Of a stretch of DNA of 64,000 nucleotides, positions 4,039 through 23,488 are shown piece by piece. Position numbers and translations under genes: made by a program. Below the pieces are notes generated by a model. That model saw nothing but the letters and a program-made list of their open reading frames with translations. It did no database searches and was not told the origin of the DNA. Each line of letters begins with the position of its first letter. Position 1 is the stretch's first letter. The DNA is from Candidatus Omnitrophota bacterium. GTDB lineage: Bacteria; Omnitrophota; Gorgyraeia; Gygaellales; Profunditerraquicolaceae. The stretch covers positions 16,988 through 80,987 of the forward strand of contig JAQUOD010000007.1 of NCBI GenBank assembly GCA_028717245.1, in the 5' to 3' direction.

Positions 4039-5940
4039 TCAGCCATTACGTTTTATCCAGTTTGGTTTTTTCCCTATCCAACTTTCTGGTTTTTTCCCGG
4101 GATCATGGTTTATTATTTCTGTCTGGGGTTTTGGCCTATCTTCTTCTTTTAAAGTAAATACCCGCATCATTTCGGCCGCGGCCATGGCGTATACTTCCGC
4201 ATCCCAGTAATGAGCTTGGGCGTGAGATGAAACCGGCTCCCAAACTTCATAGGTCCTGCCGGTCTTCCGATCACGCTTAATAATCTTATGCTCACCACAA
4301 AACCATCTAAAATACTCTTCGGATGGTTCTTTATGCAAATGCCATGTTGGCGAAGCATGCTCAGTGTGTACAAAGAAACTGATTTTGTCTTTAAAATAGT
4401 TGGTATCAAGGAACCAAAGCTTAAGGCCTCCTTTAATATGCTTCCCATCAGGATATTTATCAATAGTCGCCATCTTATAGGGAACGCCAGTAATTTGATC
4501 CTTCCCTTTAATAGCCCTTGTTAAGGTCGGATATTGACGACAAAAATTATATACTTCACCAGTGCGATAACCGGTATCAAAACAGGTTAACCGCACGCTA
4601 AAAGGCTCAATCCCGGGGATCACTGAGGGATATTGGGTTTTAAATAATATATTCTCAACCTCATTCCAATCATTAACTTTTTCTTCAAGAATTAGCCAAG
4701 ATTGAGGATATGCCCCCCAGGCGCGAATTATTACAATAAAATAATCTTTCTGCATATCAACTCCACCAAACAAGACAATAGCGCCATCAGGGACCGTACC
4801 GCGAGCATAGTCTCCACATAGAATTTTTAATTTTTCCGGTTTTGTTTCTATAGCTTTCTCTTCCCATACCTGGGCAAGCCAGCTGTTGATAAAATTCATT
4901 AACAATTCCGGTCGGTCATGCGAATCAATAAATTCAGCCGTAACATCAGAAAATGTTAACCATGGGGAATATAGCGCATTAAGATGAAAACCTACGTGGG
5001 AGACCTGCGGAAAATCCAATTTATCCGGCAACTGGTCCTTTACATCTAACTTTACTGCTGCGGGGATCCATTTGCCCTTCAAAAGCATATCCTGTTTCAT
5101 TAAATCAGTTATTTTCCCCTGACAATACTCACATTCATACCAGGCAAGGCGCTCCTGCCGGATACGCTCAGGATCTCTTTCCTCTTTAGGGAATTTTACA
5201 TGGTGTTCAAACTCTAATACCTGGTATCCTCCACAATATGGACAGGGCACATAATAACTTCTTTTGTCTGAATGCTCATATTCTCTGTAAATATATCCGT
5301 TTTTTGTTGTAGGGGTTGAGCAATCAATGCTCTTTCTATTCCAGAAGGTATGCGTTCTTTCATTGGATAACTTTATCGGATCGGCCTCTTCTCCTGAAAA
5401 CTTAGGATATTTATCCACTTCATCGCGGAAAACATATCTTACCGGCTTTCCAGAAAGAGCTGCAGGGCTATTGGCTCCGGCAAAGTAGATAAACATCCGA
5501 TTCAATCTCATTTCGAGCTTTGTGATATCATCTGAATCATTTGTAAGATGCTTACTCAGTTCTGGAGAAACCTCAATCATCGGACGAATTCTGCTCTTTG
5601 ATATATATTTGGCATCGGGTTCGCGCGGCATAACTACTAATGCGGGGGCCGGATCCTGGTCTATTATATAAGCCAGCATGTTTAACCATGATTCTGTTTT
5701 ACCTACCTGGGTACAAGACATAATCGTAATTTTCTCTACCAAGGGATTATTAAAAGAATCCATTATCCCGCGCAAATAGGGAGTGCGGTCCGTTCGCCAT
5801 TGCCCCGGTTCGGCAGAAATCATCGGGTCAAGCTTGCGGTATTTATCCGCCCATTGAGATACTGTCAGTTCGTTGGGGATCTGCCAGGCGCTACGAACTG
5901 CTGGCGTCCAAAGCTTTAATGTTGCCAGTTGGGTTTCCAT
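4039..5940 (-). CDS. Phage terminase large subunit (GpA-like)
   Basis: 633 aa. Walker A-like QVGKTES near the N-terminus, a C-terminal nuclease-like region, and lambda-like gene order. Confidence 0.85.
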   Translation of the reverse strand: METQLATLKLWTPAVRSAWQIPNELTVSQWADKYRKLDPMISAEPGQWRTDRTPYLRGIMDSFNNPLVEKITIMSCTQVGKTESWLNMLAYIIDQDPAPALVVMPREPDAKYISKSRIRPMIEVSPELSKHLTNDSDDITKLEMRLNRMFIYFAGANSPAALSGKPVRYVFRDEVDKYPKFSGEEADPIKLSNERTHTFWNRKSIDCSTPTTKNGYIYREYEHSDKRSYYVPCPYCGGYQVLEFEHHVKFPKEERDPERIRQERLAWYECEYCQGKITDLMKQDMLLKGKWIPAAVKLDVKDQLPDKLDFPQVSHVGFHLNALYSPWLTFSDVTAEFIDSHDRPELLMNFINSWLAQVWEEKAIETKPEKLKILCGDYARGTVPDGAIVLFGGVDMQKDYFIVIIRAWGAYPQSWLILEEKVNDWNEVENILFKTQYPSVIPGIEPFSVRLTCFDTGYRTGEVYNFCRQYPTLTRAIKGKDQITGVPYKMATIDKYPDGKHIKGGLKLWFLDTNYFKDKISFFVHTEHASPTWHLHKEPSEEYFRWFCGEHKIIKRDRKTGRTYEVWEPVSSHAQAHYWDAEVYAMAAAEMMRVFTLKEEDRPKPQTEIINHDPGKKPESWIGKKPNWIKRNG

Positions 5941-6997: not shown

Positions 6998-8290
6998 TCA
7001 CCTCCTTTCAGCTTTCTTTCCTGTAAATTCTTCCCACCTGCGTACTGCTACATCGCAAAATACAGGCTCTAGTTCCATAGCAAAACATCTTCGATTGAGC
7101 CTCTCAGCTGCTATAATCTGTGAACCGGACCCGCTAAACGGCTCATAGCAAATATCCCCTGGCTTTGTATGCACTCGCATAGGAATCGCAAAAATTTCAG
7201 TAGGTTTAACTGTAGGATGCTCTAGCCCGGTATTACGTTTCTTTCCTTCCCAGTCCACTTCCCAGATATCACTATAATATTCAGGGCTTTCCGGATCCCC
7301 TATGCGTAACAAACCCACAACCCATACCGAACCTATTTTGCTTTGAGAAACCTTAAAATAGGGCTTATTACCTTGCTGCCAACCAAAAAGACAAGGTTCA
7401 TGCCCCCAGGGGTAAATTGAATAAGTTAGGACCGTGGCCGGCTTCTTCCAGATAATATGTTGATGGACCAATATATTTAACTCGTGAAGGATCTTAAGGA
7501 TAAGTTCAATCCGCTTAGAGGCATGCCAAAGATAAATTGCTGCATTTTTATCTACATGCTTTAAACCGATAGAATAAAAATCCCTTAGGAATTGTTCGGC
7601 ATTGGGGATATCCACCTCATGATAAACACCGGACCAGTCTTTTCCACCCCCTTCTGGACGATTAGCTCCGGTATAATCCACCATATAGGGCGGATCCGTA
7701 GCAAATAACTGCGCTTTTTGGCCATCCATAAGCCGCGCCACATCCGCTTCGTTAGTGCTGCTGCCGCATAAAAGCCGATGGTCACCAAGGATCCATAGAT
7801 CCCCAAGCTTAGTTATGGCTTCCTTAGGAGCTGGAGGGATATCATCAGGAAGCGTATTCCCAAGATTTTCGGTTTCAAGCTCTGCGCATTCTTCGCGCAG
7901 CTGTTTAAGCCGCAAGTTGAGGTAATCATCAGGCATCTCCTGGCGTAAACGCTCTAAAATCGGTATAAGTGCCTGCGTCCAGTATCCAGCGATTGCCTGG
8001 TTATTAAGCGTGATATTCATGGTCTGCTGCATTAAATCATCAACATCCACCATAATACAGGTTACGGTCTCAATACCCTCAGTCTGTAAAATCTTGAGCC
8101 GTTGGTGGCCGGCAACCAATTCCATGTTGCGCTTATTGACTATCAAGAGGTCAACATAGCCAAATCTTTCTAGACTGGACCGTAAGCCAGACAGTGCTTC
8201 ATCGGTAATATCACGTGGGTTACCTATGTAGGATTTTATATCTGATATATTTATTTCCTGAATGTCAGGTTTGATATTAATTTTAGCCAT
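6998..8290 (-). CDS. ParB-like nuclease domain fused to an N6-adenine/N4-cytosine DNA methyltransferase
   Basis: N-terminal ParB/Srx-like region. It carries a DPPY motif (LFATDPPYMVDY) and motif I (EPFSGSGSQ). This is a common phage orphan methyltransferase architecture. Confidence 0.8.
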   Translation of the reverse strand: MAKINIKPDIQEINISDIKSYIGNPRDITDEALSGLRSSLERFGYVDLLIVNKRNMELVAGHQRLKILQTEGIETVTCIMVDVDDLMQQTMNITLNNQAIAGYWTQALIPILERLRQEMPDDYLNLRLKQLREECAELETENLGNTLPDDIPPAPKEAITKLGDLWILGDHRLLCGSSTNEADVARLMDGQKAQLFATDPPYMVDYTGANRPEGGGKDWSGVYHEVDIPNAEQFLRDFYSIGLKHVDKNAAIYLWHASKRIELILKILHELNILVHQHIIWKKPATVLTYSIYPWGHEPCLFGWQQGNKPYFKVSQSKIGSVWVVGLLRIGDPESPEYYSDIWEVDWEGKKRNTGLEHPTVKPTEIFAIPMRVHTKPGDICYEPFSGSGSQIIAAERLNRRCFAMELEPVFCDVAVRRWEEFTGKKAERR

Positions 8291-9296: not shown

Positions 9297-9533
9297 TTAT
9301 CTCTTATCCTCCAAGGCTATAAATCCTTTCTGTTCAATCTTCTCATAAAGTGTCTGTCCGGATATCGTCATTTGAATATAAGGCATAAAGACTTCTTGAA
9401 TCTTAACCATATTAGTTTCAACTAAGGCCATCTGCGCCTCTACCCACCGCAAGATCTGTCTCCAAGCTACGCGTTTGGCTTGCTGAGCAATCTTATTGTT
9501 ATTTCTCAAACGCTTCCTCCGCGAGGATAACAT
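9297..9533 (-). CDS. Hypothetical phage protein (basic N-terminus)
   Basis: 78 aa ORF. Confidence 0.3.
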   Translation of the reverse strand: MLSSRRKRLRNNNKIAQQAKRVAWRQILRWVEAQMALVETNMVKIQEVFMPYIQMTISGQTLYEKIEQKGFIALEDKR

Positions 9534-9548
9534 TCTATCTATTGCTTC

Positions 9549-9779
9549 TCACCGGCAGGGCAACCGAAAGGGAATATCTTTACCATTAACATCGATCTTG
9601 AAGGCAACTCCGATAACTTCTCCCTTAGCGTATTCTGTTAAGATTCCCCCAGCGCCATATTTGCCTAAAATCCTTTGAATCTCTGCTACTGTCTGTTCAG
9701 GTTCAATCTTAGTTGTTTCCATAAATAAAGTTTTCATTTCAGCTTCTCCGAGAATTCCTGCCTTAATTCTTCTTTCCAT
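9549..9779 (-). CDS. Hypothetical phage protein
   Basis: 76 aa ORF. Confidence 0.3.
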   Translation of the reverse strand: MERRIKAGILGEAEMKTLFMETTKIEPEQTVAEIQRILGKYGAGGILTEYAKGEVIGVAFKIDVNGKDIPFRLPCR

Positions 9780-10426
9780 ACCGGTCTAAGGTTATCCTTT
9801 AAGAATACCGGGACTTTAAGCTTAGCGGCCTTGGCTATGATATCCCTGATCCACTCTAACTTAGGCCTTAAGAGGTCGGCGTCTTTGCCTGTATAGGCGC
9901 CTATAATAATCCACCTTAATCCTTTCAATTCTTCCGGTTCAATATTCATCCGCGAAAGTAGTGGCTCAAAAGAAACGAATAAGCGTTTTAAGGAATATTG
10001 CTTGGCTATAAAGAGAAAGGCTTTTAGGCGGCTTAAGTACTGTGCTTGTTCGACTGTCACCCCTACCCATATATTAGGCTTGCGCAGGGCATCGGTAAAG
10101 TGGACTATTCTCTCCGGACATTTAGTGAGGAGTTGGAAGGTATGTTGAGGGCACTGGTGGATAGTCCACAGGACCTGTTTTATCCAGTCTTCTATAACCC
10201 ACTCTCCGAATAAATCAGCGGTTGAGCAGACAAAGATCCTGGCGGGTTTCTTTAGCTTAATAGGTTCGCTTAGGCGCTCCGGGTGAAAATGCGGCTGCAT
10301 ATTGTAGCCCCTGAGGCGTTTGACGTAGCAATACCAGCAGTTGCGCTGGCAGCCAGTTACAGGTGTCCATGTGTAATCGCACCAGCCAATGGAGTTATTG
10401 GGTCCGTTCATCTTCCTAACCCCCAT
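9734..10426 (-). CDS. Phage Gp37/Gp68 family protein (DUF5131)
   Basis: N-terminal IGWCDYTWTPVTGCQRNCWYCY matches the IEWTD.TWNP.TGC...C..CY signature of this family. Confidence 0.7.
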   Translation of the reverse strand: MGVRKMNGPNNSIGWCDYTWTPVTGCQRNCWYCYVKRLRGYNMQPHFHPERLSEPIKLKKPARIFVCSTADLFGEWVIEDWIKQVLWTIHQCPQHTFQLLTKCPERIVHFTDALRKPNIWVGVTVEQAQYLSRLKAFLFIAKQYSLKRLFVSFEPLLSRMNIEPEELKGLRWIIIGAYTGKDADLLRPKLEWIRDIIAKAAKLKVPVFLKDNLRPVWKEELRQEFSEKLK

Positions 10427-10523
10427 ATTTGCCGGGTTAAGTTATATTTTGGTGCGTATGGCCAGAATCTGATTTGGTTTAGGATAACCCCAGTGATATA
10501 TGTAACCATACAAAGCATTTTAT

Positions 10524-10931
10524 TTAATACCCCCCCCCCGCTGTTTCGAGCACAGCTTCAACTTTTTTCAGGAAACCCCTCTTATATAACTGGTAGGCCT
10601 GGATAATAAGCTGGGTTAGTTCATCTTGATCCTCATGGTCACATATCTTTATCTTTTTAGCATATTTGCGCTGAGCGGACCGGCGTCTTGGGTTCTCTGC
10701 GGATGCTATCCCGTATTTCTTTAGGTGGACTGCCCGGGATATCTCGCTTTCATCTAATTTTATTTTATAGGTATTCCAGAAAAAATCTATTATCTCCCTG
10801 CCTTTTTTACCATCTGCCTTCATGTTCTTGATCTGTATGATATTCGCTTCTGATAGCTTACTCACATTCCCTCCTTTTTGGCCAGGCTGCCGGCTGGCTG
10901 ATTGCTCGGTATCGCCATGGATTAACCTCAT
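10524..10931 (-). CDS. Hypothetical phage protein; 3' end contains a C9/G9 homopolymer
   Basis: 135 aa. The C-terminal GGGY is encoded by the poly-C run at 10531-10539. Confidence 0.3.
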   Translation of the reverse strand: MRLIHGDTEQSASRQPGQKGGNVSKLSEANIIQIKNMKADGKKGREIIDFFWNTYKIKLDESEISRAVHLKKYGIASAENPRRRSAQRKYAKKIKICDHEDQDELTQLIIQAYQLYKRGFLKKVEAVLETAGGGY

Positions 10932-10956
10932 ACCATGCCGGCATGCGCTGGGTTAT

Positions 10957-11109
10957 TTAAAAAATTCTTCTTATTTTCTTAATTAATAAACTAATAAGTA
11001 TACTTGCCAGGAATATACAAGAAGCCACAAGAAGGCCGAATGTTATCAATAAGGTAATCTGGTCGCCTCTACTAAAGCAGATCATTCCTGGCATGCAGGT
11101 AGTATTCAT
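10957..11109 (-). CDS. Small hydrophobic protein (possible holin-like or membrane peptide)
   Basis: ATG sits directly after the RusA stop (TAGATG). About 50 aa with one transmembrane helix: MNTTCMPGMICF...LLVASCIFLASILISLLIKK. Below the ORF-track size cutoff. Confidence 0.25.
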   Translation of the reverse strand: MNTTCMPGMICFSRGDQITLLITFGLLVASCIFLASILISLLIKKIRRIF

Positions 11110-11487
11110 CTATGCCTCCGATATAATGACTGTGGTCCCTTCCTTCTCTCCGTTTACAAATTGCACCTCTATGGCTTTAAGATGAGCGGCGTCATCGCGG
11201 AAGAAAAAGGTCTTCTTTAAGGCATCTGTGATGAATTTGGTGCCTCCGATGTAGTTATCTAAATCCCGGGTCCGGTTGGAATTGAAAGTGATGATGTATA
11301 GGACCTTTATCGGCTTGAGGAAGATGAACTTATTGCGCGCCATCCACTGCGCCCATGCCCATTGGTCCCAGAGTTTCTGTTCCTTTGTGCGGCCTACCCA
11401 ATGGGTTCTGAGCATGTCGTTAAGAGAGGGCGGTACCCGGGGAATTGTGAAGGAAATTTGGTTAAGCTTTCTTTTTGTCTGTGACAT
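11110..11487 (-). CDS. rusA: RusA-family Holliday junction resolvase
   Basis: PPSLNDMLRTHW, RTRDLDNYIGG, DALKK and FRDDAAH match the conserved RusA blocks, including the catalytic Asp residues. Confidence 0.75.
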   Translation of the reverse strand: MSQTKRKLNQISFTIPRVPPSLNDMLRTHWVGRTKEQKLWDQWAWAQWMARNKFIFLKPIKVLYIITFNSNRTRDLDNYIGGTKFITDALKKTFFFRDDAAHLKAIEVQFVNGEKEGTTVIISEA

Positions 11488-11710
11488 AGGTTATGATGTC
11501 CTGAACGGTTAAGAATTTTGCCGCGTCCTCATCCGGTATTTCGATTCCGAAGGCCTCCTCAAGGGCCATGATGGCTTCGATGCGGTCAAGGTCATCCATG
11601 GCGAGGTCATCGTTGAGGCTATCGGTGAGTTCGATATCCCCGGGTTCTCCCCCTGCGCCTAAGGCAGAGGCGAGTGCTTCTTTGACCTTTGTTTCTATTG
11701 TTGTGTCCAT
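11462..11710 (-). CDS. Acyl carrier protein
   Basis: 82 aa, acidic, with the LTDSLNDDLAMDDLDRIEAIMALEE motif carrying the phosphopantetheine-attachment Ser. Confidence 0.75.
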   Translation of the reverse strand: MDTTIETKVKEALASALGAGGEPGDIELTDSLNDDLAMDDLDRIEAIMALEEAFGIEIPDEDAAKFLTVQDIITYVTDKKKA

Positions 11711-11810
11711 ACCCCCTCCATTTAGTTATAAGGCCTGCGCCGGGATTTGACCACGTTCTTAGAGATAAAGATATTAGTAATCTTCGGTACCTTGTCAGTA
11801 CGCACAGGCC

Positions 11811-12569
11811 TCAACAATATTGCACCCAATCATTTAAGTTATGCTTCTTAAAAAGCATTTCCCTGAATTCATTATATTGACGATTACGGTATTTCAGGTA
11901 TTCTGCCGGCTTGTAGTCGATATAGTTGGCGGTGATGTCAGGTGTCCAGCAGACTTTATGGCCGGATTGCTTATAGCGCCAGAAGAAGTCTTCATGTTCT
12001 CCAGTCTTAAGGGCTTCATCCCATTTGACGGAAAGGATAGTATTTATTTTGGCTAAGAAGAATTGCCGGCAGATGTCGCAGTGCTTGATGCGCAGACCGG
12101 TTGTAGGGTCTGTTTCGATTGTGTCGTTTCTTTTAAGTAGGAAGCGGTTGTCCTGGATATCCATAAAGTATTCCCAGGGGATGCGGTCATTAAGGTCAAA
12201 ACCCAGGATGCCTATGTTTGGGTTGTTTTCCAGGAAGTGGACGGCTTTGTCGAGATTGGTAATGGTTTCGGGAATGAATTCGATTGAGTCGGCGGTTAGG
12301 AGGCAATAGTGGAGGCCTTTCCCAGCTGCTGCTTGTATAAGATAATTGCGTGCATAAGACACTCCGCAATCAAAAGGAAGAGGTTTCCAAGTCTTCGCCT
12401 CTTTAATAAAAAAATCAAAGAACTCTCTTTCATTTTCTGAATCTTCTCTTCCCTGATCTCCGACAAATAAATCAAATCCTGGTATCCAATTTTTAACGAT
12501 GCTAATTATGGTCTTCTTAGCCAGCCAATCCCGTAAGAATGTGGTATAGATAATTGCTATTTCTTCCAT
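11811..12569 (-). CDS. Putative glycosyltransferase-like protein
   Basis: 252 aa. Weak GT-like features only, and it sits in a cluster with other sugar and methyl transfer genes. Confidence 0.35.
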   Translation of the reverse strand: MEEIAIIYTTFLRDWLAKKTIISIVKNWIPGFDLFVGDQGREDSENEREFFDFFIKEAKTWKPLPFDCGVSYARNYLIQAAAGKGLHYCLLTADSIEFIPETITNLDKAVHFLENNPNIGILGFDLNDRIPWEYFMDIQDNRFLLKRNDTIETDPTTGLRIKHCDICRQFFLAKINTILSVKWDEALKTGEHEDFFWRYKQSGHKVCWTPDITANYIDYKPAEYLKYRNRQYNEFREMLFKKHNLNDWVQYC

Positions 12570-13138
12570 TAAAAGTATCCTTTACTTTTAAGCCAAGCTG
12601 CCAACGGTGCGGGAGACTCATAGTGAACATGTTTATCACCCAAATCCTTACACATAAAACCTTCTGCATCCGCGTAATCATCAGCTATGTCGACTACAAG
12701 GAACGGCCCCTTTCTCAGAAGTTCATTCATATAGCGCTGATAAGCTAAGCGCTCATAGTCAGAACTCACAAAGGGGACATCAGGATTCTCCCATGTATCA
12801 GTTCTGCGAGGTGGAGGAGGAATACTGTAAACCCAAATATTAGGGTTAATCTTTCTATTCAGCTCAATAGCCTCGAAATACTTCTCCACCAACATCTCCA
12901 CGGTGGATTTCCAGGGAGGGTGTTTACCCACATGACAACGACAGTCTATCTCTCCAAAACAAAAGCACACCGGGCAATCCGCAGGGAAGTCCTTCACAAT
13001 AATATCCTTATCCCTACCAAGTCGGAACATAGTATAGCTTCCAAGAGTATTGTAACTTACAAATGGAAAATTATTCCAAGGATGCCAAGAATGGCTATCA
13101 CCCACAGTATAAATCCTAAACTTCTGCCTCTCTTCCAT
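12569..13138 (-). CDS. SGNH/GDSL-like hydrolase
   Basis: N-terminal YTVGDSHSW matches the GDSL block I serine motif. Confidence 0.45.
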   Translation of the reverse strand: MEERQKFRIYTVGDSHSWHPWNNFPFVSYNTLGSYTMFRLGRDKDIIVKDFPADCPVCFCFGEIDCRCHVGKHPPWKSTVEMLVEKYFEAIELNRKINPNIWVYSIPPPPRRTDTWENPDVPFVSSDYERLAYQRYMNELLRKGPFLVVDIADDYADAEGFMCKDLGDKHVHYESPAPLAAWLKSKGYF

Positions 13139-14169
13139 TAAACAGGCCTCCCATTAACGCAATATCCCTTTAAACTGTTGGCAGGGTTCATGTCGTGCAG
13201 GCCCCCGGGTTCCTGATCCATTGGCCAATAAATATGCGGTGAATGTGAAATCGCTGCCAGGTTCGCTCCTTTGAATATTTCGGCGTAATGCTTATTCCAT
13301 CCTCCGCAGTGCAGACGCATTGCGCAATGAATGCAGGGTTCGGTTTGGATGGCGGTGCTTTCTCCTAATGCTAAGGCTGCCGGCCAGACTTCACCCCAAG
13401 AAGGCTTATAATATCCATAATCCCACTCCCAGGGGTCATATAGGACGTAGCGCGCATTAACTACGTACTTCCAGTATTCAGGGCTTAAGTGGCAGAAAGG
13501 ATGATACCGGATAGTAAAGAATTTGCCTGAGGCGATTAATAAATCCGCGGCTTTCTCTATATAGGGGCGCAACTCTTGCGGGTGGACCGCAACCTCAGCC
13601 GCGTGCTGCTTCCATTCATAATGAGGAAGAAATCCCAAGAGGGCGATGTGAAAGGCGCCTTTCTCTATAAGACATTGAGTTATTTCGGGGAGCTGTTTAT
13701 AGTTGAGTTGCTGCAAGGATGTATTGGTGCGAAATGGCAGCTTATTTTCTTTTAGCCAGGTTATGAGTTCACCTTGCCTTATCCCGGCGCCTTGGCATTC
13801 CATAATCATTTCCAAGGCCTCTCCAATGGCATGGACGGATATCTGCAGATGGTTAAGGCCGAGCTTAAAAAGGGCTTCGTAGTTTTTGATGGGTAAGGTG
13901 CCGTTGGTGATGATATTGCTCTTTAGGCCTTCACAAGCTGCGGCTAGGATTATTTCGTTGATCTGCGGGTGCAGCATAGGCTCGCCTTCCCCGATTAAGA
14001 CGATTCTATCTATTCCCCGGAAGAGGCCTTTGCGCATTTCCTGGATTATCTCCTGCAGGGGCTTATGGATATTCTTATGCAGGTTGGGATTGCGCCTGTA
14101 AAAGCAGTGCTTGCAGCTGACGTTGCAGGCCCAGGTTACATTAATTCCCAAACACCCACAGGGATTCAT
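13138..14169 (-). CDS. Radical SAM protein
   Basis: CNVSCKHCF is a Cx3Cx2C motif near the N-terminus. Additional C-terminal Cys residues suggest a SPASM-like region. Confidence 0.75.
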   Translation of the reverse strand: MNPCGCLGINVTWACNVSCKHCFYRRNPNLHKNIHKPLQEIIQEMRKGLFRGIDRIVLIGEGEPMLHPQINEIILAAACEGLKSNIITNGTLPIKNYEALFKLGLNHLQISVHAIGEALEMIMECQGAGIRQGELITWLKENKLPFRTNTSLQQLNYKQLPEITQCLIEKGAFHIALLGFLPHYEWKQHAAEVAVHPQELRPYIEKAADLLIASGKFFTIRYHPFCHLSPEYWKYVVNARYVLYDPWEWDYGYYKPSWGEVWPAALALGESTAIQTEPCIHCAMRLHCGGWNKHYAEIFKGANLAAISHSPHIYWPMDQEPGGLHDMNPANSLKGYCVNGRPV

Positions 14170-14794
14170 TTTCAGGTTCCTTTCTGATTATGGCTATGCT
14201 GGACCTAAAAGGCTTGACTATCTCCTGTAAAGCAAATACATCCATGACGGCGGTCACTACTCCGATATGGTCCCGGCTGTAATTGAAGTCGTGTGCGAGA
14301 AGAACTCCTCCGGTCTTTAATTTAGGCCAGTAATCGATGAAGTCATTCTTTGCCGCTATATAGCTATGATCACCATCTATAAAAATCATGTCCAGGGAAT
14401 TGTTCGGGAAACTATCTTTTACCAGGTGCGAATGTTTCTGGTAGTGCGTTGCCTTGATGTGCTCTGTGTTTTTTCTGAATTGGTCTGCTATTTCGGCCAT
14501 CATATCTTTAGGCCCGGAAGTGAAAGGGTCTATTGAGATGAAATTAATGCTTTTACCGGAAGCCTTGGCGGACTCATAGGCGCAGACTAAAGATCCGCCC
14601 AAGTGGCAGCCTATCTCCAGGTATGTGCCGCCTTCGGGGATCTGCTTTACTGCCTTGAATATTTCGAACATATCCCAGATAGTTAGCAAGGCTTTCTCCC
14701 CAATAGTTTCGATGATAGCTTTAGTGAACCCCTCTTTTAAAAATTTGCCTTGGTGGTTTTCGAATTCATTCATTAGCTTGGCTAAGCTCGACAT
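14141..14794 (-). CDS. Class I SAM-dependent methyltransferase (O-methyltransferase-like)
   Basis: LEIGCHLGGS motif I and a GGVLLAHDF motif. Confidence 0.6.
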   Translation of the reverse strand: MSSLAKLMNEFENHQGKFLKEGFTKAIIETIGEKALLTIWDMFEIFKAVKQIPEGGTYLEIGCHLGGSLVCAYESAKASGKSINFISIDPFTSGPKDMMAEIADQFRKNTEHIKATHYQKHSHLVKDSFPNNSLDMIFIDGDHSYIAAKNDFIDYWPKLKTGGVLLAHDFNYSRDHIGVVTAVMDVFALQEIVKPFRSSIAIIRKEPENESLWVFGN

Positions 14795-16103
14795 AATAAT
14801 CCCCTCTTTTGATTATCTGATTGAAGATTTCTTTTTGCTTTAGGTTGGTAATCAAAGTTTCGATGGCTTCGCTCTTCATGCCCATGTTCCCTGCCTTGTC
14901 GCGGATAAGGTCCTGCCAGGACTTCTCTCCGCGGCCAGGATATCTTATTTCTGAAATATGCCTGACCAGGTCGATGTCTACGTTGTATATCCGGTTATTG
15001 CAGGACTTGAAATCGACTCTCTCAAAATCGAGTTCTATTAATCCTACGGTGCCTAAGACCATGTTTAAGTGCAGGATGTGGTGAAGGATTATGGGGTTAT
15101 CCTCCAGTATTGACCCATAAACCCACTCGGCTACTTCGCCTACCCGGGAACCGCGGTATTCGATGATCTGGTGGAAGCGCGGGAAGAAGTCTCCCAGCGC
15201 GTTAAGGACCAGGAAGACGCCATCGGGGTTCATGCGCATATCGAACTTATACCTGCGGTTCTCATATACAAACATGCTGTCGGGGCCGCGGTTAGGGTTG
15301 CATTCGATTAAAATCCCTTTCCTGATTAATTCCCTCCGTAAATTTGCCCCCTCAATGTATTCCATGTCGGGCTTGGCCCTTTTAAAGACTGCGGTGGCCC
15401 TGCCGAGGCCATTATCGCAATGCCTGACCAGTTCGAATTGCGGCTTGAGGTATTCTTCGTATTGGGCGAAGGTATAAAGGCTTTTTACGTAGCTTGACCA
15501 TGACCCTTCGCGGGATAGTTTGGTGACTGCGGGATCGGATATTTCAAAAGGGCCGTCAATGATGAGGTATTTGTCGCATATCCCCGCGAGCTTCTTTAAA
15601 AAGAGCAGTGGCGGCGCGTAAGATTTAGCGCAGTCAAAGAAGAAATAGTGATGGCAATTCCCTATGTAGACAACATCGTATTTATGCTGGAATGGCACGT
15701 CCCTGAATTCTCCGTGCCAGAAGTCTATATTTTTGATGTTGTGGGCTGCTGCCAATTTTATGGAGAAGTCGATATATTCCTTGGCCTTGTCGAATCCCGT
15801 TACTTTCTCGTATTTATCGGCCAGCTTAATACAGAAATATCCTTTATTGGATCCGATTTCCAAAAGAGATTGGCCGCCGGCGAATAGTTCGGGGGCGTTG
15901 TTTTTTAATATCTCTAACCTATGGATAGTCTTTCCCTGCGGCTCCAATGTCTCGGGATCGAAACAGTGGTTATCGGGATAGCTTAATAGCTTGAGCTCTT
16001 CTCTTAATTGATTAAAGGGCATTGCGGCTCCTTCGTTACCAGCGGATGATTTCTGATTGCTTCCGGTAATTCGTTTATGGTGATTTCTTTTATCTTCTGC
16101 CAA
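14766..16103 (-). CDS. SAM methyltransferase fused to a kinase-like (APH/choline-kinase fold) domain
   Basis: N-terminal LLEIGSNKGYF methyltransferase motif. C-terminal HHILHLNMVL...IELDFERV resembles the HxDxxxxN and DFG/DxE blocks of kinases. Confidence 0.45.
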   Translation of the reverse strand: MAEDKRNHHKRITGSNQKSSAGNEGAAMPFNQLREELKLLSYPDNHCFDPETLEPQGKTIHRLEILKNNAPELFAGGQSLLEIGSNKGYFCIKLADKYEKVTGFDKAKEYIDFSIKLAAAHNIKNIDFWHGEFRDVPFQHKYDVVYIGNCHHYFFFDCAKSYAPPLLFLKKLAGICDKYLIIDGPFEISDPAVTKLSREGSWSSYVKSLYTFAQYEEYLKPQFELVRHCDNGLGRATAVFKRAKPDMEYIEGANLRRELIRKGILIECNPNRGPDSMFVYENRRYKFDMRMNPDGVFLVLNALGDFFPRFHQIIEYRGSRVGEVAEWVYGSILEDNPIILHHILHLNMVLGTVGLIELDFERVDFKSCNNRIYNVDIDLVRHISEIRYPGRGEKSWQDLIRDKAGNMGMKSEAIETLITNLKQKEIFNQIIKRGDYYVELSQANE

Positions 16104-16792
16104 CTCTTCTCATAGCCGATTGAGGGATGAAAATTCTCTACGTTGGGGATAGCTGACCAGATGCGCTTAAACCAATCCGGGTGGGATGGCACGTTATCTC
16201 CTATGGATGAGGTATAGAATTTAAGGCGGATATCAGTTTCGCTTTCGCGCACGTAGGTGAAATGGTGCATATAAATGTCGTCAAGATAGGCTTTATCCTG
16301 GATGCTTAAGCCCCGGGGGCCGAAGATGCCATGGGCGCGGGACATATCTATTCCTACTACCGGCCGGCAGGTTTCCGGGGGGTCTATCCTGTAAAAAGGG
16401 CTTTTGATATAGGTGTGCATCCTGCAGCAATATGCCGCGGCTTCCTTGCTTTCCAGGGCTGCTTTTAATTTTACGATATCGGGCTCTTCCCAGATTTCGT
16501 CCGTATCGATAAGCAGGAGCTTTACGTTGCCATATAGCCTTTTTATGATAGTAAAGCCGGTTTCGTATTGCTGGTCCTGCGTTAAAAAAAGGCCGGTGTA
16601 TTGGATAACCGGTATAGAGTGCTCTTTATTCCATTCCATTATCGGCTGCAGGCAATTATTTCCGTAGGCGCCTCCGCCCCAGACCACCTGAGAATGGATA
16701 AATATTATGGCGTCCACGTGCTTATAAATCGAATCCAGGCTGGCTTTGAGCCATTCTCCCCCGCGCAGGGTCTTATATAAGGCGATTAGCAT
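16004..16792 (-). CDS. Hypothetical protein, possible glycosyltransferase
   Basis: 262 aa with a DTDE acidic motif, sitting in the glycan-like cluster. Confidence 0.3.
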   Translation of the reverse strand: MLIALYKTLRGGEWLKASLDSIYKHVDAIIFIHSQVVWGGGAYGNNCLQPIMEWNKEHSIPVIQYTGLFLTQDQQYETGFTIIKRLYGNVKLLLIDTDEIWEEPDIVKLKAALESKEAAAYCCRMHTYIKSPFYRIDPPETCRPVVGIDMSRAHGIFGPRGLSIQDKAYLDDIYMHHFTYVRESETDIRLKFYTSSIGDNVPSHPDWFKRIWSAIPNVENFHPSIGYEKSWQKIKEITINELPEAIRNHPLVTKEPQCPLIN

Positions 16793-17360
16793 AGGTCCTT
16801 TCGAAATATTCCTTGTTTTCCTGCCAGTACTGGCTCTGGCGTTTCATTTCATTTAAGTGCACTACCTTAACCAGGTTATTGATGATGATTTTAGGGCCCA
16901 TGTCAAGGCAGAAGGCGTCGTCCTCGAATCCGCTGCCCTTAAAGTTCTCGTCAAATCTTATTGCGGTCTGGCGAAAGGCAATACAGGCTGTCGGGATTTT
17001 CATTACTATTTCATAGTCATGGCCCAGGTCATATTTACTGGACATCATGGGAGCAGGTGTTGCGTCTTTACGGATAAGGCGGGCTGAAACAATACTCACC
17101 TTAGGGCATACTTCTAAGAGTGAAATTAAAATCTCATTCCAACCTTTGAATAAACCTGTTATGTCGTCATCAACCATAATGACATAGGGAGCGGCTGAGA
17201 GCATGAGGCCGGCATTGCGGTTCTTGGCGGCACTATATTCCGGGTTTGAGGCGATGATCAAATTAAAGGCGCCGGTAGATGTGGCATACACTTCTTCTAT
17301 AAGAGGCAAAAGCCCTTTTGTTTTACAGCTAGGGATGATGATATCTATTTTAGGTTCCAT
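16773..17360 (-). CDS. Family 2 glycosyltransferase (start reassigned to the internal Met MEPKIDIIIPS)
   Basis: KIDIIIPSCK...VIMVDDDI is a GT-A DxD region. The longer ORF in the track overlaps the upstream gene by 160 nt, so the internal start is preferred. Confidence 0.5.
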   Translation of the reverse strand: MEPKIDIIIPSCKTKGLLPLIEEVYATSTGAFNLIIASNPEYSAAKNRNAGLMLSAAPYVIMVDDDITGLFKGWNEILISLLEVCPKVSIVSARLIRKDATPAPMMSSKYDLGHDYEIVMKIPTACIAFRQTAIRFDENFKGSGFEDDAFCLDMGPKIIINNLVKVVHLNEMKRQSQYWQENKEYFERTYANRLI

Positions 17361-17970
17361 CGCGAGTGATAATAATTCCTTGTTTTCCGCATTCTTTGGC
17401 AAGGCAGTCAAACCAGTGCCGTTCATTTGTCCAGCGTCTGTCAGTATGCTGGGTGCGGTAATTCTCCAGGCCCTCAATGAAATACCCCTGGCCGCCCATG
17501 TCCGCTCCATATAACCGGATATCCCTGGCCCCGCTTAATATCGCCAGGGCGATTGCGGGGAAGATGGTAGATTCGCGCCAGTTGATATAATGGCCGAAGG
17601 GGATGATTTGGTTAAATGCTTCTATTGACTCTGCAGGAAAGGCCTCTTTATAAAAGACCTGGAAGTGAGAATTTAACCTGTCATAATCTTTAGGGATATC
17701 AATAAGCCAGCGGCGCGGGATCCAAAGGCGGGTTGCATAGAACCGGGAGATATCGGCCTTTTTGATTATGGTCTCGAAGACTTCGATATCCTGCATGACC
17801 CAGTAATCGAATTTAAAGGCATCCAGGAGTATGGCTCCGTTTACCGCAACCAGGCAGGCAGGGTTATCCTGCAGTATTTTCTTCTGTGTTTTATAAAGCC
17901 CCAGGGAGGGCCCGGGGCAGCAGATGCCCCAGGCTGAGGGTGTAATTATTTTTTGTCCGGGCCTTTCCAT
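17350..17970 (-). CDS. DUF115/Maf-like protein (putative glycan-modifying enzyme)
   Basis: 206 aa with ICCPGPSL...LVAVNGA, resembling the DUF115 N-terminal block. Confidence 0.3.
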   Translation of the reverse strand: MERPGQKIITPSAWGICCPGPSLGLYKTQKKILQDNPACLVAVNGAILLDAFKFDYWVMQDIEVFETIIKKADISRFYATRLWIPRRWLIDIPKDYDRLNSHFQVFYKEAFPAESIEAFNQIIPFGHYINWRESTIFPAIALAILSGARDIRLYGADMGGQGYFIEGLENYRTQHTDRRWTNERHWFDCLAKECGKQGIIITRDGT

Positions 17971-17986
17971 TTATCTCCCTATTTTA

Positions 17987-18070
17987 TTGCGGGGACCGGA
18001 TTCGAACCGGTGATGTCCTTACGGATACAGGGTTATGAACCCTGCGGCCTCGCCACTGGCCAACCCCGCG
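17987..18070 (-). tRNA. tRNA-Met-like (anticodon CAT) with initiator-type features and an unusually long variable arm
   Basis: Minus strand reads CGCGGGG-TT-GGCC...GGCC-G-CAGGG-TTCATAA-CCCTG-TATCCGTAAGGACATC-ACCGG-TTCGAAT-CCGGT-CCCCGCA-A. It has a canonical GGTTCGAATCC T-arm. C1:A72 is mismatched, and three G:C pairs close the anticodon loop, as in bacterial initiator tRNA. The variable region is ~16 nt with its own TCC/GGA hairpin, and no CCA is encoded. Confidence 0.6.
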
Positions 18071-18074
18071 AAAG

Positions 18075-19379
18075 TTAATCCTCCCAAAAAATCAGGAAAC
18101 GGAATATCTCCTCGAGACCGAGCGATTTATTTCCCATGAAATATTCCAGGGCCGATTTTTTGCTTTCTACCTTTTTGGGCGCGAGCTTATATGCAAAAAT
18201 AGCCGCATCAACTTCTTCATCATGATATCCCCTGCCAAATTCTTTAGCGAGGATACCGGCGAAGAAGGCGCGGTCCATTTTAGCCTTGGCGGCCTTGGCC
18301 TTTATTCGTTCGATATTTTTAAGCTTTTCTTGTTCGGCTTTTTTCTGCTCAGCCTCTTCGTGCGCCTTATTCTTTTGCTCAAAACACTCCTTATCCAGGC
18401 AGAGCTCTTTTTTTACCTTTTTGTTTCCGCTGCCATATTGATCCTTAACCAGGGCGACTTTGCGATTAGCGCATTTAACGCAGGCCTTGATATCAAAGCG
18501 GGCATGCCTTAAATCCTGACAGTCTTTGGGGAGCGCGTCTTCTTTAACTACCCTGCCGGAATCAATAGCCTTTTTTATGCGCGTGCTCTCTTCTTTAACC
18601 TTAACGCCCTGTTTCTCTTTCCAGCAATCCGGATTAAAGCAGCGCTTTTTCTTGCCTTCCCAGCCTATATCTACCAGGCGGTTAAGGCCGCATTTTTCGC
18701 AGGGAGTTAAATCGAATTTGGGATCGTCTCCGCCATACTGGCTTTTATATAATGGCTTGGTATGCCTGCGGATGACGTCCTTGGACATGTCGTCAAACTG
18801 GCGCACCGTGATATCCCCGTATTGTTTTATCTGCTCCTTAAGCCGGGTAACCAGGTTATCAATGATCTTCTTGCCGGCATTCTTAAAGATAAGCAGGTAT
18901 TTCGCGTGCCCGGGAAGCAGGGTGCCATTCTCAAGAAAGGCCATTAAGTCCTGCGGGATGTCCAAAAGCGCAAGGCGCAAAGCGATATAACTTTGGCTCT
19001 TGCCTATCTTGGCGGCAAGGGCTTCCTGCTTTAGTTTGCAGATATCAATAAGCTGCTTAAATCCAGTTGCCTCTTCTATGGGCGTTAAGTCATCGCGTTG
19101 GATGTTTTCGATAAGCTGCAATTCGATGACTTCGGAATCGCTAAATTCCTGTTCTATTGCCGGGATAACGGTCAGCTTAGCCTCTTTTGCCGCCTTGAAG
19201 CGCCGCTCCCCGCAGACAAGCTCAAAGCGGTGAGGTATGCCCTTTTTGGGGCGCACAAGAACTGGCTCAAGGACCCCGCGGCGTTTTATAGACTCTACCA
19301 GTTCCTTGAATTTTTCCTCATTGACATGCTTCCTTGGATTTGTTCCGGTTAAACTAATATATTCAAGCTTTAGATCCAT
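18075..19379 (-). CDS. ParB-like nuclease domain protein with C-terminal Zn-ribbon and coiled-coil region
   Basis: N-terminal VRPKKG...ELVCGERRFKAAK and IENIQRDDLTPIEEA match ParB box motifs. C-terminal Cys pairs (CEKCG...CFNPDC, CVKCA...C) are present. Confidence 0.7.
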   Translation of the reverse strand: MDLKLEYISLTGTNPRKHVNEEKFKELVESIKRRGVLEPVLVRPKKGIPHRFELVCGERRFKAAKEAKLTVIPAIEQEFSDSEVIELQLIENIQRDDLTPIEEATGFKQLIDICKLKQEALAAKIGKSQSYIALRLALLDIPQDLMAFLENGTLLPGHAKYLLIFKNAGKKIIDNLVTRLKEQIKQYGDITVRQFDDMSKDVIRRHTKPLYKSQYGGDDPKFDLTPCEKCGLNRLVDIGWEGKKKRCFNPDCWKEKQGVKVKEESTRIKKAIDSGRVVKEDALPKDCQDLRHARFDIKACVKCANRKVALVKDQYGSGNKKVKKELCLDKECFEQKNKAHEEAEQKKAEQEKLKNIERIKAKAAKAKMDRAFFAGILAKEFGRGYHDEEVDAAIFAYKLAPKKVESKKSALEYFMGNKSLGLEEIFRFLIFWED

Positions 19380-21610: not shown

Positions 21611-23488
21611 ATGCTTTACGACCGTTTCCAGCAAGAAGCGATTGACTATATCAACCAGGGCCACTCCGTAATCGTCTCAGCCCCCACAGGCGCCGGCAAG
21701 ACCGCCATAGCAGAACATGTAATTTCCGAATGCATCCACTGTAAAGTCGGGGTCATCTATACCGCTCCCATCAAAGCCCTCTCCAACCAGAAATTCCGCG
21801 ATTTTGAAAGCCAATTCGGGGATGATATCGGCATCTTAACCGGAGACGTATCCTTAAACGCGGGCGCGCCGGTGCTCATCATGACTACGGAAATATTCCG
21901 CAATAAAATCCTGGATGAACCAGAGAGCCTGAAGCGCTATTCCTGGGTTATCTTTGACGAAGTGCATTACCTGGATAACCCCGAACGCGGCACGGTCTGG
22001 GAAGAATCCCTGATGCTTTTACCTGCCCACATGAAGATACTCTGCCTCTCTGCCACCATACCCAATATCAATCAGTTGGCTGCTTGGATTGAATCCATAC
22101 ACAATAAGCCCGTCGAGAAAGTCATCGAAGAAAAGAGGCCTGTGCCATTACATTTCTTCTTTCAGTGCCAGAACGAAATCGTAGATAATATCAATGCCTT
22201 AAAAAAATTGGGGCCCGGCCGGCCGAATAAAATGGCCGCGCTGATTAACTACATCCGCCAGAAAGAAGGCCTGGCCTGCATCTATTTTGTTTTCGGAAGA
22301 AGAAGGGCCGAAGAACTGGCACAGGAACTATATAGTTACGATTTCCTGAATGTTAAGCAGAGGCAGGAGATTTTATCTTTGTATGATTCCCTCTGCGAAC
22401 GCTTTGACTTAAAACACGAAAAATCCGCGCAGGAATTATATTCCCTGATCCAAAAAGGCGTTGCTTATCATCATGCCGGAATGCTGCCCACCTTAAAAGA
22501 AGTAGTGGAAAGATTATTTACCAGCCGGCTCTTAAAAGTTATCTTCACCACCGAAACCTTTGCCTTGGGTATTAATATGCCCAGCCGAACGGTCGTCTTT
22601 GATGACTTAAGGAAATTCTACGGCCGTTATATGCGCACCTTAAAAACGCGCGACTTCTATCAGATGGCCGGGCGTGCCGGCCGGCGCGGAATAGATAAAG
22701 AGGGCTTTGTTTACTGCCGGGTCAATCCGGCGCGGATAAATATGGAGGAAGTAAAACGCATCATCTACGGAAAATCAGAGGAAGTAAAGAGCCAGTTCAA
22801 CACCTCTTATGCCACAATCTTAAACCTGTACGAGAAACATCAAGAAGGCCTTTATAAAATTTATCCTCTCTCCCTGCATTATTTTCAGTCCAAGAAATAC
22901 GAGCAGAAAGAAGCGCTGCGTTTAATTGAGGCAAAATTAAAACTACTCAAGGAGCTGGGTTACATAGAAAACAACGCCTTGACCCAGAAAGGCCAATTCG
23001 CCAAAACCGTCTATGGTTATGAATTAATCCTCTCTGAACTCTATGCGCAGAATATCTTAGAGCAGCTGGATGAATTCGGCCTGGGGATTCTGGCAGTAGC
23101 GGCGGTCTTTGAGCCCAGAAAGAACCAACATATGCCGCACCTCTCTAAGGCCGCGCGCAAAATAAAGCGGGTCTGCGAAGAGATATACGAAAAGATAAAA
23201 GCCAAGGAATTAAAATACCGGATTTATCCTTTCAGTAAACAGCCTACCTTTAATTTAAGCGGCGGTATTGAAGGGTGGCTGCGCGGGACAAACTTCGATA
23301 AAACCCTGCAATTCACGGATACCGACGAAGGCGAGGTCGTGCGTTACTTCCGCATGGCTATCCAGATTTTAAGGGAAGTTTCCGACGCGCCGGTTGCCTC
23401 TTATGTCCTCAAAGAAAAAATCAAAGAAACCGTCCGCGTGATTAACCGCGATATCGTAGATGCGGAAAAGCAGCTGCGCGAAGGTTAA
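21611..23488 (+). CDS. DEAD/DEAH-box SF2 helicase (Ski2/Lhr-like)
   Basis: Walker A APTGAGKTAIAE, DEVHYL (DExH), SATIPN, a C-terminal HAGM...TTETFALGINMP block and MAGRAGRRG motif VI. This is the only long plus-strand gene in the window. Confidence 0.8.
   Translation: MLYDRFQQEAIDYINQGHSVIVSAPTGAGKTAIAEHVISECIHCKVGVIYTAPIKALSNQKFRDFESQFGDDIGILTGDVSLNAGAPVLIMTTEIFRNKILDEPESLKRYSWVIFDEVHYLDNPERGTVWEESLMLLPAHMKILCLSATIPNINQLAAWIESIHNKPVEKVIEEKRPVPLHFFFQCQNEIVDNINALKKLGPGRPNKMAALINYIRQKEGLACIYFVFGRRRAEELAQELYSYDFLNVKQRQEILSLYDSLCERFDLKHEKSAQELYSLIQKGVAYHHAGMLPTLKEVVERLFTSRLLKVIFTTETFALGINMPSRTVVFDDLRKFYGRYMRTLKTRDFYQMAGRAGRRGIDKEGFVYCRVNPARINMEEVKRIIYGKSEEVKSQFNTSYATILNLYEKHQEGLYKIYPLSLHYFQSKKYEQKEALRLIEAKLKLLKELGYIENNALTQKGQFAKTVYGYELILSELYAQNILEQLDEFGLGILAVAAVFEPRKNQHMPHLSKAARKIKRVCEEIYEKIKAKELKYRIYPFSKQPTFNLSGGIEGWLRGTNFDKTLQFTDTDEGEVVRYFRMAIQILREVSDAPVASYVLKEKIKETVRVINRDIVDAEKQLREG

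Follow-up and report, generated by a model that had tools for sequence, protein, structure and literature searches.

The 64,000 nt stretch of a Candidatus Omnitrophota contig analysed here (the window) contains a block of nine minus-strand open reading frames (ORFs; g1 to g9) that fill positions 11462-17970, with coordinates as in the initial annotation of this DNA. That annotation had placed nine co-oriented genes between phage DNA-metabolism genes and a tRNA, and the ORFs together with a tRNA-Met predicted by ARAGORN agree with this arrangement. The gene inventory of the initial annotation proved largely correct. From g2 to g9 each gene directly adjoins or overlaps the next, and g1 alone is set apart, 100 bp from g2. 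We consider it highly probable that g2 to g9 constitute a phage-encoded cytoplasmic cassette for glycan assembly and tailoring. No membrane segment was found in any of the nine proteins (the top 19-residue Kyte-Doolittle mean was 1.72 and fell inside a conserved soluble domain).

Glycosyltransferase-like proteins

The cassette holds up to three transferases of the GT-A type. The core gene g7 (16004..16792, minus strand) represents a new family of glycosyltransferases (GTs) with GT-A fold, for which we found 26 related proteins among 5.8 billion clustered proteins. The motif D96-x-D98-E99 was invariant in an alignment of 25 g7 sequences. An AlphaFold2 (AF2) model of g7 had a predicted local distance difference test (pLDDT) score of 94.3, and a Foldseek search with this model yielded 321 PDB matches at E<=1e-3, with SunS and ThuS (both glycocin S-glycosyltransferases), SpsA and WrtF at the top. 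Against BFVD the same model matched phage "Fringe-like" and "GT17" proteins with template modelling (TM) scores of up to 0.71. The g7 profile also showed a weak match (1.4e-5) to GmaR, the Listeria flagellin O-GlcNAc (O-linked N-acetylglucosamine) transferase. The Pfam GT2 domain was undetected in g7 itself, and when g7 and g9 were compared with the PDB as single sequences, all matches were at chance level. Judged by its predicted structure, we regard the assignment of g7 as a GT-A glycosyltransferase as certain.

A second core gene, g8 (16773..17360, minus strand), most likely encodes 195 aa, with its start moved to M51, because homologues align only from residue ~54 and the corresponding gene of a sister phage locus (L012) has 195 aa. 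The window protein scored 16.6 bits on PF00535, which is under the cut-off of 23.3 bits. Its orthologues (39-65% identity) in five related loci passed this model with 26.0 (L012), 27.5 (L009), 26.3 (L008), 30.6 (L003) and 48.9 bits (L001), and through these orthologues g8 is predicted to be a GT2-family glycosyltransferase. The third candidate, g2 (11811..12569, minus strand, 252 aa), is a putative GT-A/GT2-like glycosyltransferase with a weak assignment. It had no Pfam match, weakly matched the N-terminus of the HpsN GT (1e-5), and a profile built from three g2 sequences matched only SpsA, near full length (E=0.039). The motifs TADS and GEHEDFFWR are conserved, and g2 has orthologues in L012 (83%) and L001 (69%). 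Of three GT-like proteins predicted initially, g7 is thereby retained on its fold and g8 on its orthologues, and g2 is only weakly GT-like.

The gene g9 (17350..17970, minus strand) is the first gene of a variable slot that follows a parB gene, and has 31 related proteins in the same clustered set. Its motifs are CPGPS, which is conserved and of the G-P-S nucleotide-binding type, and YGADM. With an AF2 model of g9 (pLDDT 91), Foldseek retrieved from the PDB ST8SiaIII (1.6e-4), Cst-II (6.6e-4) and ST6GalNAc2, followed by the MptE HPPK (3.1e-3), with TM scores of ~0.5. The archaeal MptE pyrophosphokinase is the founding member of DUF115, and the same fold class takes in the Maf-type flagellin glycosyltransferases. 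The Pfam model for DUF115 (PF01973) did not match g9 and was faint in three of 30 relatives (best E-value 0.017). The model therefore supports a sialyltransferase/DUF115-like assignment at the level of the fold; of the DUF115/Maf-like label given to g9 at first, the fold was upheld and the Pfam family was not.

A radical SAM family with seven invariant cysteines

The core gene g4 (13138..14169, minus strand) encodes a radical S-adenosylmethionine (SAM) enzyme of 343 aa (PF04055, 2.9e-19; 70.3 bits against a gathering cut-off of 29.5). It scored far under the cut-off of every named NCBIfam model. The CX3CX2C motif on which this gene was originally labelled (C15, C19 and C22) is invariant in all 27 relatives, at identities down to ~27%, and the label can be kept. 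Four more cysteines were likewise invariant in the 27 family members (C226...C279-x2-C282-x5-C288), from which we infer one auxiliary Fe-S cluster. The SPASM domain PF13186 was undetected in g4 by Pfam scan, and the N-terminal half resembles SPASM/twitch peptide maturases (PqqE, SkfB and others) with scores under their cut-offs. Among 1.84 billion cluster representatives 34 matched g4 at E<=1e-30. Farther relatives (27-35% identity over ~300 aa) are often multidomain proteins in which the radical SAM domain is fused to GT2, GT1, UDP-GlcNAc 2-epimerase or TPR domains. These fusions are Rosetta-stone evidence that the clade acts on glycans or together with glycosyltransferases. Taken together, the sequence comparisons define g4 as a new and nearly phage-restricted seven-Cys radical SAM family with a predicted second, four-Cys site.

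The exact g4 sequence is not on record, since gene callers chose a shorter start. A tblastn search of g4 against 50,697 deposited phage genomes (GenBank) returned a radical SAM protein of the Campylobacter CP220 group as sole match (24% identity), which we set aside as uninformative because its gene is without glycosyltransferase neighbours. Two related loci encode a second, distinct radical SAM gene beside the g4 homologue (L002 8463-9356 and L004 1456-2403), and that of L004 has a recognisable SPASM domain.

Methyltransferases

Two class I SAM methyltransferase domains are predicted in the cassette, one in g5 and one at the N-terminus of g6. The core gene g5 (14141..14794, minus strand) belongs to Methyltransf_24 (PF13578, 1.8e-17) and is fused to g7 or g8 in relatives. 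It had been annotated as an O-methyltransferase; the methyltransferase family is confirmed, and the "O-" specificity is not supported.

The accessory gene g6 (14766..16022, minus strand, 418 aa) combines a class I methyltransferase with a C-terminal domain of ~200 aa, and its start is most likely M28, as in the deposited 418-aa protein. The N-terminus matched the Pfam families Methyltransf_31, _25 and _11, and the solved proteins nearest to it were GenN, which methylates gentamicin at nitrogen, and WbdD in its methyltransferase domain (~1e-4), in line with the methyltransferase domain first proposed there. The g6 family has nine members among the 5.8 billion clustered proteins. Its C-terminal domain is conserved with an invariant pattern R..R-x-K..N..G..D-x-D, in which R-x-K and D-x-D do not vary and a putative catalytic-loop Asp does. 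For this domain no PDB match was obtained by profile search and no Pfam match in scans of the individual members, and the kinase-like label that it was first given found no support in these searches. The gene is present in L002 and L005 and absent from L001 and L012, and as bait in peptide-pattern searches of viral contigs it retrieved nothing.

Accessory gene g3 and the acyl carrier protein-fold gene g1

The accessory gene g3 (12569..13138, minus strand, 189 aa) is of an unassigned family. The SGNH hydrolase label first given to it is putative: an N-terminal GDSH motif (residues 13-16) is present, and this block I is the only recognisable SGNH block, since neither GxND nor DxxH could be made out clearly. 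Searches of Pfam, NCBIfam and the PDB gave no match (a single-sequence PDB search gave chance-level matches), a weak match to phrog_13881 (4e-4) was obtained, and g3 is absent from all related loci.

The gene g1 (11462..11710, minus strand) encodes an 82-aa protein (pI, isoelectric point, 4.05) with acyl carrier protein (ACP) fold and is a loosely attached neighbour of the cassette. It overlaps rusA and has its own GGAGG ribosome-binding site. The ACP fold first assigned to it was confirmed (PF00550, 4.5e-11; NF002148, 72.9 bits against a cut-off of 71; 105 PDB ACP matches), the phosphopantetheine serine was not. In three HMMER alignments to ACP chains (DDLD against DSLD, or DXLD in the second chain) the g1 motif AMDDLD aligned opposite GADSLD of solved ACPs, which puts Asp40 (codon GAC) in place of the serine. 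With this aspartate, g1 is unable to bear an acyl group in this phage. In the sister phage L012 the homologous ACP (9418-9654) keeps the canonical DSLD and is encoded at the other extremity of the block, flanked by parB and g9. L012 was the only cassette relative with an ACP: none was detected in L001 or in the more distant loci tested, an unrelated 75-aa ORF occupies the position of g1 in L001, and no phosphopantetheine (PP)-binding protein is encoded by the small ORFs that L001, L002 and L003 have at the corresponding place. The block also encodes no ketosynthase, acyltransferase or acyl-ACP ligase. We therefore rejected an integral role of the ACP as pathway carrier, given the missing serine, the small ORFs of the relatives and the lack of an acyl-loading enzyme. 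In all probability g1 takes no part in the catalysis of the pathway, and the gene may represent either a decayed copy or a mimic of an ACP that has a role other than that of a carrier. The combination of ACP and radical SAM enzyme, which had been pointed out as the unusual part of this locus, does not hold up with an ACP that has no serine, is absent in L001 and the distant loci and lies at the opposite end in L012.

Several of these enzymes would also fit a small diffusible product, either a glycosylated radical SAM-crosslinked peptide, similar to a glycocin or sactipeptide (a peptide made by ribosomes and modified after translation, RiPP), or a glycolipid built up on the ACP. The likeness of g4 to SPASM/twitch peptide maturases, the glycocin S-glycosyltransferases at the top of the g7 fold matches and the adjacent ACP-fold gene are in agreement with such a product. 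Against it, the packed block has no precursor-peptide ORF, leader protease or exporter, the ACP is neither conserved nor provided with a carrier serine or with the acyl-loading enzymes named above, and the relatives of g4 are fused to polysaccharide-type GTs and not to RiPP recognition elements. We regard a diffusible product as very unlikely.

Related loci and distribution of the cassette core

Genome and viral collections were searched by peptide patterns, so that phage restriction of the cassette is a lower-bound statement. The g4 protein retrieved eight IMG/VR viral contigs and a single match among 185,579 species genomes (one genome each), on a contig of a Sedimentisphaerales metagenome-assembled genome (MAG) where the module lies near a large terminase gene. 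A look at the genomic context of g9 relatives added L012, L013/14 and L015/16. The DNA of the block (7.1 kb) had no match in the 50,697 phage genomes, nor did g7 and g9 in tblastn searches of them. The cassette core is, on these searches, almost confined to phages, and its families are without a studied member.

Synteny mapping showed that the conserved core consists of the radical SAM enzyme, a g7-type GT-A protein and Methyltransf_24 (MT24), usually together with the GT2 protein g8. In several relatives these parts are fused: L001 encodes a GT2::GT-A::MT24 protein of 677 aa, L012 (465 aa), L005, L006 and L007 encode GT-A::MT24 fusions, L003 a GT2::FkbM-MT::MT24 fusion of 633 aa, and L008 a fusion of GT2 with a TcdA/B-like DXD-GT. 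The genes g2 and g9 are limited, among cassette-bearing loci, to the close relatives L001 and L012.

The core recurs in ~11 other phage contigs, and each cassette-bearing relative has genes for terminase, portal, head or tail proteins next to it. A P22-like portal gene follows directly downstream of the module in L002, a head protein gene is found upstream in L007, tail genes in L004, and a DNA methyltransferase gene after the module in L003. The backbones differ, with one terminase family in the window, a second in L003 and a third in L005, L008 and L009, and these comparisons indicate that the core moves between unrelated phage backbones. The description of the block as phage cargo is borne out by the phage genes on its flanks and by the same block in L001, L012 and eight further contigs. 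A check for the block in phage-free relatives, which had been suggested, gave the one match among the species genomes, also beside a terminase gene. A host glycan locus that abuts the prophage was rejected on the same grounds, given phage genes on both sides and a core beside packaging or structural genes in every relative.

Within the lineage of the window phage, which has ParB, RusA and DUF5131 in common, the slot after parB is variable and holds three versions of the cassette. The radical SAM cassette occupies it in the window, L012 and L001. The slot of L013 (10001-16800, JGI Ga0265297_10001144) begins with a g9 homologue, followed by genes for a B12-binding radical SAM protein, a GT2-like protein, a sialyltransferase of Glyco_transf_29 (GT29), a CTP_transf_3 cytidylyltransferase (CMP-sugar synthetase) and a methyltransferase, and the slot of L015 contains a g9 homologue and a methyltransferase gene only. 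These three versions represent a natural comparison set. Parts of a diversity-generating retroelement lie just downstream of cassette and rusA in L013 (17556-20243) and L001 (14033-15133). They comprise a reverse transcriptase, a bAvd-like protein and two targets of the Lcl_C/C-type-lectin fold, and none was seen in the phage portion of the window.

Phage context of the block

The phage portion of the window (~0 to 21.8 kb) was scored by Pfam and PHROGs. It encodes a lambda-type portal protein (825-2468), a GpA-type large terminase (4039-5940) and, between the two, an HNH_3 endonuclease (2863-3432, minus strand), followed by a fusion of ParB with an N6/N4 DNA methyltransferase (6998-8290), a DUF5131/Gp37-Gp68 protein (9734-10426, minus strand) and RusA (11110-11487). 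On the other side of the block lie the tRNA-Met (CAU; 17986-18071, minus strand), which marks the upstream boundary and is outside the cassette, ParB (18075-19379), two small replication-region proteins and an amidase. Host housekeeping DNA begins at ~24 kb (SHMT, PurD, PurL, enolase, FtsH, RnfC), which places the phage-host junction within 21.5-24 kb. At the other side the phage ends with the contig, just past the portal gene. The block is situated inside a prophage, or inside a phage joined to host DNA. The lineage is temperate, as the integrase and cI/cro-like genes of L013 show.

GC skew was ~0 to +0.05 over 10001-18000, a region that comprises the cassette, rusA and a 135-aa ORF, against -0.06 to -0.2 in the flanking minus-strand phage and host genes. 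This difference fits acquired cargo and a recent acquisition.

A few further features of the neighbourhood were noted. A gene for a DEAD/DSHCT (Ski2-like) helicase adjoins the phage early region both in the window (21611-23488, plus strand) and in L012 (3179-5068) with 75% identity, and the genes past it differ between the two. A separate 21.9-kb Logan contig stops 189 nt inside this helicase gene and has its other end just beyond the portal gene. With 86 nt the tRNA is larger than usual for a tRNA-Met, be it elongator or initiator, which suggests a long variable arm. Nine related loci contained no tRNA, and the idea that it is an integration scar of an island is unsupported, since the relatives have no tRNA at this site. 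The DUF5131/Gp37-Gp68 protein has a CX3CX2C-like motif (GCQRNCWYC, residues 25-33). Genes of this family also occur in L012 (16003-16695), L003 (6612-7226) and L008 (5565-6323) and recur at a distance of no more than a few kb from the cassette, on three distinct phage backbones. DUF5131 may be a second radical-SAM-like enzyme, and it may be functionally tied to the cassette.

The position of the block between parB and rusA, close to the ParB-fused DNA methyltransferase and DUF5131, is also what might be expected if the cassette hypermodified phage DNA, as had been proposed at first. One of the GTs would then put a sugar on a nucleobase and the other enzymes would elaborate it, which would block host nucleases. 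It has been documented that GT-A and GT-B enzymes of phages assemble glycans on 5-hydroxymethylcytosine (5hmC) and that they co-occur with ParB, methyltransferases, secondary GTs and terminase (10.1101/2023.12.21.572611). In L003 a DNA methyltransferase gene follows the module, and g9 also resembles MptE, a pyrophosphokinase that acts on a hydroxymethyl group. However, the defining companions of such systems, namely a C5-methyltransferase with a TET-like dioxygenase or a thymidylate-synthase-like hydroxymethylase that would provide 5hmC or 5-hydroxymethyluracil (5hmU), are lacking in the Pfam tables of the window (~0-21.8 kb), L012 and L013, an absence that covers ~22 kb of the window phage and the sister loci, with the rest of the phage off the contig. 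TarP/JGT-type matches, which are reported for DNA GT-A enzymes, were not among the best 50 PDB matches of g7. The cassette proteins range from acidic to neutral (pI 5.6-7.6), in contrast to the flanking DNA-binding proteins (pI 9.2-10), and we know of no reported role of sialyltransferase-like enzymes or CMP-sugar (cytidine monophosphate-sugar) synthetases on DNA, which also counts against a DNA target. DNA hypermodification of this kind is possible but improbable. Still more doubtful is a variant in which the cassette writes a radical SAM-tailored methylated glycan on DNA without enzymes for a 5-hydroxymethyl-pyrimidine precursor, for example with the MptE-like g9 or with g4 activating the base. 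Temperate phages of Omnitrophota and Planctomycetota would then possess a DNA hypermodification system of a new class.

Proposed mechanism and acceptor

The initial proposal of a methylated glycan is well in accordance with the gene content, i.e. two confirmed GT-A enzymes, a sialyltransferase-like protein, two or three methyltransferases, GT-GT-MT fusions, and fusions of radical SAM enzymes with GT2 and GT1 in relatives. We found no promoter or terminator signal above chance in the block, although the promoter model may not fit Omnitrophota. From the gene overlaps and this lack of signal we infer that the genes belong to the early/middle lytic transcript, and the cassette would be transcribed with this operon. 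The transferases would then take nucleotide sugars of the host and assemble a short oligosaccharide on a macromolecular acceptor. Probably g9 would use a CMP-activated ulosonic or nonulosonic acid, because its fold is sialyltransferase-like and its homologue in L013 lies beside Glyco_transf_29 and CTP_transf_3. The oligosaccharide would be methylated by g5 and g6, and g4 with its auxiliary Fe-S cluster might carry out a radical step on the sugar, e.g. an oxidation, epimerisation or deoxygenation. A further substituent might be added or trimmed by g3 and the C-terminal domain of g6. With phage virion proteins as acceptor, the progeny particles would be furnished with a glycan coat.

We tentatively favour the phage's own virion proteins as acceptor, then the host envelope, with DNA as the least likely of the three. 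Virion proteins are favoured because the module is self-contained, soluble and nearly phage-restricted, crosses backbones and host phyla, and adjoins packaging and structural genes. Weak affinities to GTs that act on proteins or peptides point in the same direction, namely those to GmaR, SunS/ThuS, the Maf/sialyltransferase class and, in a relative, the TcdA/B-like domain. The glycosylation of capsids in mycobacteriophages and chloroviruses serves as the analogy, and for the former there is experimental precedent (PMC11600133). Several points speak against this reading. The acceptor is putative, and with the phage structural genes off the contig no glycosylation-prone feature of capsid or tail could be checked. 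The fold likeness of g7 to protein GTs is weak (TM ~0.5), and the same likeness extends to the polysaccharide GTs SpsA, WrtF and hyaluronan synthase. A site just upstream of the terminase gene is also typical of DNA methyltransferases and of general cargo. A promoter model that may not suit Omnitrophota leaves room for expression in the lysogen, phage restriction is the lower bound given by peptide-pattern searches, and the chemistry of g4, g3 and the C-terminal domain of g6 is hypothetical.

Alternatively, the cassette might remodel a glycoconjugate of the host envelope at the cytoplasmic face, such as lipopolysaccharide (LPS) core or O-units, capsule, S-layer, or flagellin or pilin glycans. 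Added and methylated sugars would mask a receptor, resulting in superinfection exclusion, or would keep progeny from adsorbing to infected cells and debris. This would suit a temperate lineage on a contig with host housekeeping genes, and the methyltransferase domain of g6 is like that of WbdD, an O-antigen chain terminator. The fold class of g9 includes Maf-type flagellin glycosyltransferases. There are known cases of prophages with soluble GT-A enzymes for the modification of wall polymers, e.g. TarP (cited in 10.1101/2023.12.21.572611), and the Undecim cluster of phage WO, with a GT::rSAM (GT-radical SAM) fusion and methyltransferases, has been predicted to serve exopolysaccharide (EPS) or LPS synthesis (PMC9203015). 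On the other hand, the nine genes encode neither a membrane protein nor a flippase nor a polyprenyl-phosphate glycosyltransferase, and the cassette lies within the lytic operon with no promoter or terminator of its own above chance. The classical seroconversion module considered in the initial annotation is unsupported in view of the absence of a membrane segment and of a GtrA-, GtrB- or flippase-type gene and the location inside this operon. The same core is found in phages of Omnitrophota and in the Sedimentisphaerales MAG on different backbones, which is not what a host-specific acceptor predicts, and its near-absence from cellular genomes argues against a captured host glycan locus. We therefore consider a host-envelope acceptor possible but unlikely.

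Whichever acceptor is used, the cassette represents a self-contained mobile module of very small protein families that circulates among uncultured phages of Omnitrophota and Planctomycetota, and the recurrent linkage of radical SAM and GT2 proteins suggests that glycan tailoring includes a radical step that has yet to be described. If the virion is the acceptor, glycan-coated phage particles would reach well past phages of Actinobacteria. If DNA or the host envelope is the acceptor, the cassette would be a new anti-defence or exclusion device.

Comparison with known systems

To our knowledge, phage glycosylation is known from few systems, i.e. DNA glucosylation in T-even phages, Gtr seroconversion, TarP, virion glycans of actinophages, and TET-linked DNA glycans. 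Families of the Gtr/Oac seroconversion type (GtrA, GtrB, membrane GT, acyltransferase_3) were not found by Pfam in the nine genes. The multidomain architecture of the 677-aa protein of L001 (GT::GT::MT) is also that of the A064R-type protein of chlorovirus PBCV-1, a GT-GT-methyltransferase for the synthesis of a methylated capsid glycan. PBCV-1 differs in being a eukaryotic virus without a radical SAM enzyme and with no detected sequence kinship, and the giant-virus GT-A matches in BFVD are generic. Flagellin glycosylation islands (Maf/DUF115, GmaR) share with the window the fold class of g9 and the profile match of g7 to GmaR, and the WbdD methyltransferase-kinase resembles g6 in having a similar methyltransferase domain and a second domain. 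In contrast to both, the window is without nonulosonic-acid biosynthesis genes, and its genes are phage-borne and phage-restricted.

Phage clusters for DNA glycans are defined by a C5-methyltransferase with 5mYOX/TET, or by ThyS, together with GT-A and GT-B enzymes (10.1101/2023.12.21.572611). They are similar to the cassette in that GT-A enzymes occur in multi-GT operons near ParB, methyltransferases and terminase, mostly in uncultured phages, but differ in their 5hmC/5hmU-generating enzymes, which are absent here from the visible phage regions. The text of that preprint makes no mention of radical SAM enzymes, and the fold neighbours of g7 differ from those reported for DNA GT-A enzymes. The Undecim cluster of phage WO (WD0611-WD0621; PMC9203015) is, like the cassette, functionally uncharacterised prophage cargo with GT, radical SAM and methyltransferase genes. 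Its UC3 protein is a GT::rSAM fusion, an architecture shared with distant relatives of g4. Unlike the cassette, Undecim has additional transporters, a GlmU-like gene and other metabolic genes, and is located in a eukaryotic association module.

The closest parallel to virion glycosylation is provided by the mycobacteriophages. In Cluster O, the capsid and the tail tube consist of proteins that are modified by three phage-encoded glycosyltransferases together with an O-methyltransferase (Freeman et al. 2023, as summarised in PMC11600133). The virion cassettes of Clusters O and F resemble the block described here in their tandem soluble GTs with a SAM methyltransferase, the lack of membrane parts and the action in the lytic phase. 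They differ in their Actinobacteria hosts and in having no radical SAM enzyme and no sialyltransferase-like protein. The acceptor is known there and putative here, and no sequence kinship was detected, given the empty tblastn searches of g7 and g9. Phage glycosylation cassettes as such are already known, and what is new at this locus are its unstudied protein families and a seven-Cys radical SAM clade that is linked to glycosyltransferases.

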